Source of the DNA: Gammaproteobacteria bacterium
Lineage (GTDB): Bacteria; Pseudomonadota; Gammaproteobacteria; UBA1113
Assembly: GCA_021156165.1 (NCBI GenBank)
Contig: JAJNBM010000001.1
Span: forward strand, 8,577-72,576
Direction: 5' to 3'
Length of the DNA: 64,000 nt
The translations under genes were made by a program, and so were the position numbers. This document shows positions 42,551-42,700 of this stretch, in pieces. Every line of letters begins with the position of its first letter. Position 1 is the first letter of the stretch. Below the pieces are notes generated by a model. It did no database searches and had not been told where the DNA came from. It saw only the letters and a list, made by a program, of their open reading frames with translations.

Positions 42551-42700
42551 AAAATGGCCGATAAATCTAAAAAAGTGGCCAGTAAATCTAATAAAGTGGC
42601 CGATAAAGCGGAAAAGTGGCCAGAAAATATAAAAAAATGGCCGATAAAGCTGGAAAATGGCCGATAAACGGTTATAATGAATAAAAGTGGCCGATATTTT
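42551..42700 (+). repeat. array of seven direct repeats, core (G)TGGCC(G/A)RTAAA, spaced 20-21 bp; TATAAT (42673..42678) between repeats 6 and 7
   Basis: TGGCC cores at 42555, 42576, 42597, 42617, 42638, 42658, 42688; the last repeat overlaps the 5' end of the Fic ORF. Confidence 0.7.

Follow-up and report, generated by a model that had tools for sequence, protein, structure and literature searches.

This locus raises the question of why seven short direct repeats should run across the promoter of a gene encoding a Fic-domain protein, and which protein reads them. The window, meaning the whole 64-kb stretch of DNA that was analysed, belongs to a Gammaproteobacteria MAG (metagenome-assembled genome) and was examined together with related loci from other genomes and metagenomes.

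The box array, the promoter and the fic gene

The TGGCC cores of the repeats, here termed boxes, start at 42555, 42576, 42597, 42617, 42638, 42658 and 42688, all seven on the + strand and exactly where the initial annotation had placed them. The array (42555-42698) thus consists of seven same-strand boxes, with a consensus of an A-rich stretch followed by TGGCCGATAAA; each box is 11 bp long and adjacent boxes are separated by 9-10 bp. Core-to-core spacings are 21, 21, 20, 21, 20 and 30 bp, such that the 20-21 bp spacing reported earlier holds for five of the six steps and fails for the last. The features of the array and of the gene are as follows.

42551..42565, + strand: box 1, AAAA + TGGCCGATAAA (exact)
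42572..42586, + strand: box 2, AAAG + TGGCCAGTAAA (variant)
42593..42607, + strand: box 3, AAAG + TGGCCGATAAA (exact)
42613..42627, + strand: box 4, AAAG + TGGCCAGAAAA (variant); boxes 3 and 4 repeat the 41-bp unit of boxes 1 and 2
42634..42648, + strand: box 5, AAAA + TGGCCGATAAA (exact); stops just 5' of the -35 hexamer
42651..42656, + strand: -35-like hexamer TGGAAA (promoter scan)
42658..42668, + strand: box 6, TGGCCGATAAA (exact); entirely within the 16-nt promoter spacer, a position kept in relatives
42673..42678, + strand: -10 hexamer TATAAT, between boxes 6 and 7
42688..42698, + strand: box 7, TGGCCGATATT; near +3 to +14 relative to the inferred start of transcription
42709..42713, + strand: Shine-Dalgarno sequence AAGGA, 6 nt 5' of the ATG
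42720..44054, + strand: wHTH-Fic gene, 444 aa, ATG start
[quoted passage not shown]
42819-42857, + strand: recognition helix PERTLRRWLKVLV, residues 34-46
43575..43610, + strand: Fic active-site motif QPFIDVNKRTAR, residues 286-297; atypical, with Gln in place of the catalytic His

The four exact copies of TGGCCGATAAA in the window (boxes 1, 3, 5 and 6) all fall in the array. When up to two mismatches were allowed, 47 matches were found in the 64 kb against 25.9 expected; those outside the array are scattered singletons, and the excess is supplied by the array itself. Tandem Repeats Finder described the array with a period of 21 (5.8 copies, 74% matches) and, with a better score, a period of 41 (84% matches), because the consensus boxes 1, 3 and 5 alternate with the variant boxes 2 and 4 (TGGCCAGNAAA). 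The alternation points to duplication of a two-box unit of 41 bp within the array.

The hexamers TGGAAA-16-TATAAT, with 10 of 12 positions matching, form the only good sigma-70-like promoter that the scan detected in 42300-42900, and TATAAT lies between the sixth and seventh repeats as had been described. Box 7 is the best-conserved box of the clade (invariant columns, alignment A2). An open reading frame started by GTG at 42687 begins inside this box; its frame is stopped in L002 and out of frame in L004, while AAGGA-N6-ATG is conserved, and the ATG at 42720 is therefore supported as the true start. The initial annotation, which took the 5' end of the longer frame to be artefactual and put the start after AAGGA, was right on this point. 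A 37-aa frame within the array (42554-42667, MADKSKKVASKSNK...) was rejected as a gene, its frames being broken by the 20-, 21- and 30-bp spacings and stopped in relatives, and so was an RNA element, as the Rfam match was at chance level (E = 0.15). Boxes of 11 bp with spacers of 9-10 bp do not make a CRISPR, and no cas genes were found among the neighbours; the earlier statement that the array has no CRISPR-like structure and no rep gene nearby holds, the neighbours being housekeeping genes.

The protein has a Pfam Fic domain at residues 209-302, and its AlphaFold2 model (pLDDT 86.5) comprises a canonical N-terminal wHTH (helices at 2-14, 21-27 and 34-46, beta-hairpin wing at 50-63), a flexible or disordered linker and a Fic fold. 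A profile search matched FICD with E = 1e-12, and Foldseek with the full protein gave FICD/Fic-1, BT_2513, SO_4266 and 7xux, the last of which we take to be probably the structure of CccR, as the closest solved structures (13-20% identity). The N-terminal domain alone matched generic winged helices, namely Fur, BlaI/MecI-like proteins, PapI, ArsR/SmtB and AspA. In the active site QxFxDVNKRTxR replaces HxFxDGNGRxxR, the catalytic His being changed to Gln and two Gly to Val and Lys, in 120/120 best relatives (alignment A1), with the register confirmed by alignment to FICD IHPFIDGNGRTSR. The rest of the Fic active site is also invariant in the same 120 relatives and the loop is Doc-like (NKR). 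The inhibitory-helix motif (S/T)xxxE(G/N) is present as invariant SSRLEGNT at residues 155-162, aligned to FICD TVAIEGNT. The Gln-type Fic protein may be non-catalytic, or differently catalytic.

The genes nearby are recJ, a 3-hydroxyisobutyrate dehydrogenase gene (mmsB-like), a HAD hydrolase gene and gloB, all with housekeeping roles, and fic lies between the last two. Its G+C content of 0.33-0.39, against 0.41-0.47 in the neighbours, suggests acquisition. At 44051-44054 (ATGA) the stop codon of fic and the start codon of gloB overlap, and no terminator was predicted in 42300-42900, upstream of fic; because of these two features gloB may be co-transcribed and translationally coupled with the acquired gene. 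A search for known defence systems with PADLOC gave only weak matches for the fic protein, to the Fic-type candidates PDC-S04 (6e-17) and the SoFic model (1e-10), which are a lead and do not amount to membership in a defence system. Downstream of gloB, a 1609-aa open reading frame at 45119-49948 had no Pfam match.

The module in relatives and on other effectors

The same boxes are found 5' of homologues in differing genomic contexts (L002, L004, L005, L007, L032 and L096). Eight relatives of 55-82% identity keep the module box / box / GnTATAAT / box / Shine-Dalgarno / ATG, sharing the boxes, the TATAAT and the final GATAT box. Copy number and layout of the array differ among relatives, some of which have perfect 21-bp triplications (L096), and in L096, L002 and L005 three or four boxes come after the TATAAT; the geometry of promoter and boxes is accordingly not fixed. 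The spacers diverge between relatives and the boxes stay constant, with an information content of about 2 bits per position across TGGCCGATA against about 0.1 bit in the spacers, from which it follows that the boxes are under selection.

A related MAG, in which recJ and the 3-hydroxyisobutyrate dehydrogenase gene form the same context, retains the array, the promoter and the Shine-Dalgarno sequence (L013:5290-5480, - strand), and fic is internally deleted there, leaving a relic of 22 codons, MTVKIDAL-QEFLEWRKMHKIG, in which the first 8 and the last ~11 codons are joined (MTVKIDAL|QEFLEWRK). No conserved neighbour gene was found among 91 loci, and hence no partner regulator is evident and the unit consists of the array and a single gene. 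In the window and the Proteobacteria sampled, an array of at least three boxes always adjoins a fic gene or a fic relic. On the evidence of these genomes, the array and the fic gene are inherited and moved as one.

The family to which this protein belongs, here delimited as Gln-type wHTH-Fic proteins with self-operators, is large. A protein search at E <= 1e-5 matched more than 6,000 sequence clusters. Metagenome scanning found at least 590 encoded relatives and gave 80 further loci at 35-52% identity; on plasmids, family members bear no annotation beyond 'Fic family protein'. Within 200 bp upstream of the gene, 69 of 81 family loci (85%) contain some heptamer three or more times, against 4-22% in three control windows, and 56% contain one four or more times, against 0-3%; dinucleotide shuffles of the upstream regions gave a mean maximum heptamer count of 2.03. 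The locus in the window has all three family features: an N-terminal wHTH with a helix of the (E/D)R(T/S)(L/V)(R/Q)R type, the motif QxFxDVNKRTxR, and boxes within 200 bp upstream.

The sequence of the box is not the same throughout the family. Pairs of box and recognition helix were found in at least seven classes, across phyla, as listed here.

Box GGCCGATA: helix [ED]RTLR[RN]WL (ERTLRRWL)
Box GGCCGTAT: helix ERSVRRWL
Box GTCCGA: helix NRTIRRWL
Box GTCCAWT: helix (Y/K)KT(L/I)QRRL
Box GTCGCRA: helix RTLQRWL
Box GGCGCR (TGGCGCAAT, commonly as inverted pairs; also given as GGCGCAAT with RTLQRRL): helix RTLQR(R/H)L
Box GTACAT: helix R(S/N)VQHRL

As read from these pairs, box sequence co-varies with the putative recognition helix, including repeated switches within the tree of the Fic domain. 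Most classes are clades as well, so that common descent partly confounds this co-variation. When the tree was built from the Fic domain only, class C (the GTCCGA/RTI pairing) came up three times at separate points and class E (GTCGC) was intermixed with class F (GGCGC). Trp or non-Trp at helix position 7 tracks T or G at box position 3 (8/2 versus 1/17, Fisher p = 1e-4), and boxes are kept between proteins that are just 40-45% identical.

The phasing noted for this array, which had been taken to put all sites on one face of the DNA, proved to be general. In 36 loci (classes A-C) the distances between neighbouring boxes group at 11-12 bp (26 cases), 19-23 (41), 29-32 (17), 40-43 (8), 50-53, 61 and 71; these are multiples of about 10.3 bp, which places the boxes on one face of the helix. 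For the 30-bp step to box 7, the deviation from a whole number of turns is about 1.5 bp.

A scan across genomes for two adjacent boxes disclosed four further settings of the same box. At L028:4484-5514 a canonical Fic protein (HPFWDGNGR) has the N-terminal helix ERTLRRWL and TGGCCGATAAA boxes upstream, the last of which provides the start codon (M-A-D-K). The gene of L086 (- strand, 4145-2888) encodes a canonical Fic protein (HPWADGNGR) with a related winged helix at its C-terminus, and has TGGCCGATAAA boxes upstream, four direct and two inverted around a TATAAT. At six Solirubrobacterales/Thermoleophilaceae loci (L029, L041, L044, L058, L059 and L068; e.g. L068:5009-5062, gene to the left), two to four TGGCCGATA boxes, spaced by 22 bp, are found 4-23 bp away from where an HTH-MntA/HepT operon begins; the operon consists of genes for an HTH-nucleotidyltransferase (...SIPERTLRRAASEGLVRGERVSPRRF...; Pfam Polbeta/NTP_transf_2) with the N-terminal helix IPERTLRR and for a HepT-like protein. 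In a Bacteroidales contig (L077:3957-4070), TGGCCGATAAA and TGTCGATAAA boxes lie 3' of an AlbA_2/HATPase_c_4 gene, the product of which ends in a similar winged helix (...GANKNRTY...); the gene beyond the boxes, by its sequence a likely methyltransferase gene, takes its start codon from a box (ATGGCCGATAAA).

The strongest argument for the winged helix as the reader of the box comes from these natural domain swaps, which support the view that the box would go with the winged helix and not with the Fic domain. Among viral contigs five two-box matches were found, none of them (0/5) linked to a wHTH or Fic gene.

Probable autorepression and its alternatives

The seven boxes are very probably (probability of about 0.8) the sites through which the adjacent Fic protein represses its own promoter, and a design of this kind, with protein and DNA changing in step, recurs in a large uncharacterised family. 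The initial annotation had proposed a multi-site operator for the protein's own winged helix, and the comparison speaks for that proposal through co-inheritance, family-wide repeats, co-variation and domain swaps. Each 11-bp box would be bound by one wHTH, with the recognition helix ERTLRRWL probably contacting the TGGCC part in the major groove and the K/R-x-R-R-Y wing probably reading the A/T-rich GATAAA part. Since boxes 20-21 bp apart share one face, molecules bound to them could contact one another through their Fic domains and would then bind cooperatively. Boxes 6 (in the promoter spacer) and 7 (at the transcription start), when filled, would shut out RNA polymerase, and boxes 1-5 would raise the local concentration of the protein, giving a stronger and steeper negative feedback; boxes 2 and 4, with two to three positions off consensus, may bind weakly or have no function. 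The outcome would be a fic gene, stand-alone and acquired horizontally, that is tightly autorepressed, and any control by a ligand would act through the Gln-type Fic domain, where a bound nucleotide might alter DNA binding or, in reverse, DNA binding might alter the domain as in CbFic2 (PMC10628234). It weighs against the model that such tight autorepression is puzzling for a protein without the catalytic His.

It is improbable, though compatible with autorepression, that the array is mainly a DNA scaffold, on which phased boxes would oligomerise the Fic domains and switch their activity or ligand state, with transcription a secondary matter. A precedent exists in CbFic2 of Coxiella, for which DNA binding through the HTH leads to dimerisation and to a switch from AMPylation to deAMPylation (PMC10628234); up to seven phased boxes exceed the needs of simple repression, and the Fic domain has kept an invariant nucleotide-binding-like motif. 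However, CbFic2 was not shown to require a specific sequence, and in every case the boxes occupy the promoter of the gene itself, where they overlap its -10 hexamer, its transcription start or its start codon, a placement that suits a repressor and not a mere scaffold.

A second alternative, raised already in the initial annotation, is that another host factor, such as a nucleoid-associated protein or global regulator, binds the boxes and that the Fic winged helix binds elsewhere. What favours such a factor is the occurrence of identical arrays in the Bacillaceae with no linked wHTH or Fic gene. At 46 sampled loci (within L010-L100; e.g. L085:746-975, L014:3799-3870 and L060:2772-2874), 199 units of aaWTTGGCCGATAAA followed by about 6 variable bases were found, the box and period being the same as those of the Fic operator. 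The period is a strict 21 bp, with 20 bp in a minority. Each array comprises 2-11 copies of the TTGGCCGATAAA unit and is intergenic, with unrelated flanks and frequently a position just past a terminator. Cytobacillus, Neobacillus and related Bacillus species have dozens of arrays per genome, and a record labelled 'Pseudomonas sp. ISL-84' was grouped here, its loci having the same array type. No wHTH or Fic gene was detected within 8 kb of the sampled arrays, a comparison of one such array with plasmids gave no match, and a search with the Fic protein of L086 as query threw no light on them.

Such arrays can therefore exist unlinked to the gene. Identical arrays at many unrelated loci were what the initial annotation had named as evidence against its own proposal; they were found only in the Bacillaceae, which belong to another phylum, and not in the window or the Proteobacteria sampled. 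The conclusion for this window is not affected, its array being unique there and tied to fic. A host factor is very unlikely as the reader of the array, since the box sequence shifts together with the recognition helix of the protein linked to it, in at least seven classes across phyla, and accompanies that helix into non-Fic proteins; a host factor could not account for a box that tracks a horizontally moving gene.

Direct repeats about two helical turns apart, bound by winged-helix Rep proteins, are known as iterons in plasmids F, P1, pPS10 and RK2, where Rep also autorepresses rep. The boxes resemble them in being 20-21-bp direct repeats in helical phase (within the 17-22 bp criterion), the wHTH fold is shared with Rep and with some centromere-binding proteins, AspA being among the fold matches, and the lower G+C content of fic suggests acquisition. 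It is nevertheless hardly credible that the boxes serve a plasmid-derived or mobile element carrying fic, whether as iterons or as a centromere-like partition site. The locus lacks a Rep protein, the features of an origin and a plasmid setting, and the protein presumed to bind the boxes carries a Fic domain. No rep, par or mobility gene is nearby and the neighbours have housekeeping roles; the array overlaps the promoter and start codon in every clade, and the cassette is a single gene. A replication origin at the array was rejected on the lack of a DnaA-box cluster, a skew shift and a rep gene.

No more credible is a non-functional slippage minisatellite, or the remnant of a coding repeat (the 37-aa frame): copy number differs between relatives, with perfect 21-bp triplications (L096) and a duplicated 41-bp unit, and each box reads Met/Val-Ala-Asp-Lys in one frame, but information is concentrated in the box positions and not in the spacers, no frame runs on through spacings of 20, 21 and 30 bp, the frames are stopped in relatives, and boxes persist between proteins of only 40-45% identity.

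Known systems and wider arrays

Autorepression was predicted for HTH-Fic fusions in 2009 (PMC2686095), and the Fic toxin CccR of Yersinia pseudotuberculosis represses its own promoter via its HTH, with sites at the -35/-10 region (PMC9755527). Its operator is a single inverted pair, AGATAATCAT-N26-ATGATAATCT, and the protein has the canonical catalytic His and AMPylates FtsZ (PMC9755527). CccR, too, is a stand-alone gene product with a Fic fold fused to an HTH; the HTH is C-terminal in CccR and N-terminal (residues 1-64) here, one inverted pair stands against up to seven phased direct repeats, and the catalytic His against an invariant Gln. Thus autorepression by an HTH-Fic protein is already known, and what differs here is the domain order, the architecture of the operator, the His-less site and the visible code relating helix to box. 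A literature search found nothing relevant on the box sequence or the DVNKR motif.

SoFic (SO_4266) binds the DNA of its own promoter in vitro (bioRxiv 10.64898/2026.07.09.737422), and the activity of CbFic2 is controlled by DNA binding (PMC10628234). Both are class II Fic proteins and share with the present protein the Fic fold and the inhibitory-helix motif (S/T)xxxE(G/N), whereas their wHTH is C-terminal, their active sites are canonical and the sequence relation is remote (13-20% identity). To our knowledge, no defined repeated box has been reported for either. The operators of Phd/Doc and of MntA/HepT (HEPN-MNT) are similar in that a potentially harmful gene is autorepressed through sites over its promoter. 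The active-site loop D-x-N-K-R is shared with Doc, while the catalytic His of Doc is absent; in contrast to Phd/Doc there is no antitoxin or small upstream gene, regulator and effector being one polypeptide.

Fic proteins have been studied as enzymes, and control of their genes is known for one or two members only. The locus points to a large uncharacterised Fic subfamily in which the His is always Gln, the winged helix is N-terminal and the operator can be read from the sequence and appears to co-evolve with the helix. The pairs of helix and box would constitute a winged-helix specificity code with residue-to-base predictions and an orthogonal set of repressors and operators, and they offer a direct way to probe the role of the His-less Fic domain. 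A helix and box shared by Fic and MntA/HepT would join two AMPylation-related toxin systems by one regulatory cassette.

A broader reading is tentative and, taken whole, unlikely. Under it, the winged helix and the TGGCCGATA box would be a portable self-targeting cassette carried on unrelated effectors in several phyla (Gln-type Fic, canonical Fic, HTH-MntA/HepT and AlbA_2-type proteins), the thousands of Gln-type Fic proteins would be nucleotide-sensing DNA-binding proteins and not enzymes, and the Bacillaceae arrays would be genome-wide binding arrays for a protein of this kind. If this is true, those arrays would represent a new kind of regulon or chromosome-structuring system.

Last, some further proteins and repeats came to light. 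Among representative proteins, a profile search found three (P0123, 812 aa; P0131; P0236) in which a related winged-helix domain is repeated in tandem, from 3 to more than 7 times; such proteins could read direct-repeat arrays. A Ktedonobacterales chromosome has an 11-bp tandem ATGGCCGATAA within a more complex repeat (L064:4100-4160), and an archaeal contig carries perfect 20-bp tandem repeats GGTCGAAGATGGCCGATAAA (L073:3563-3760).
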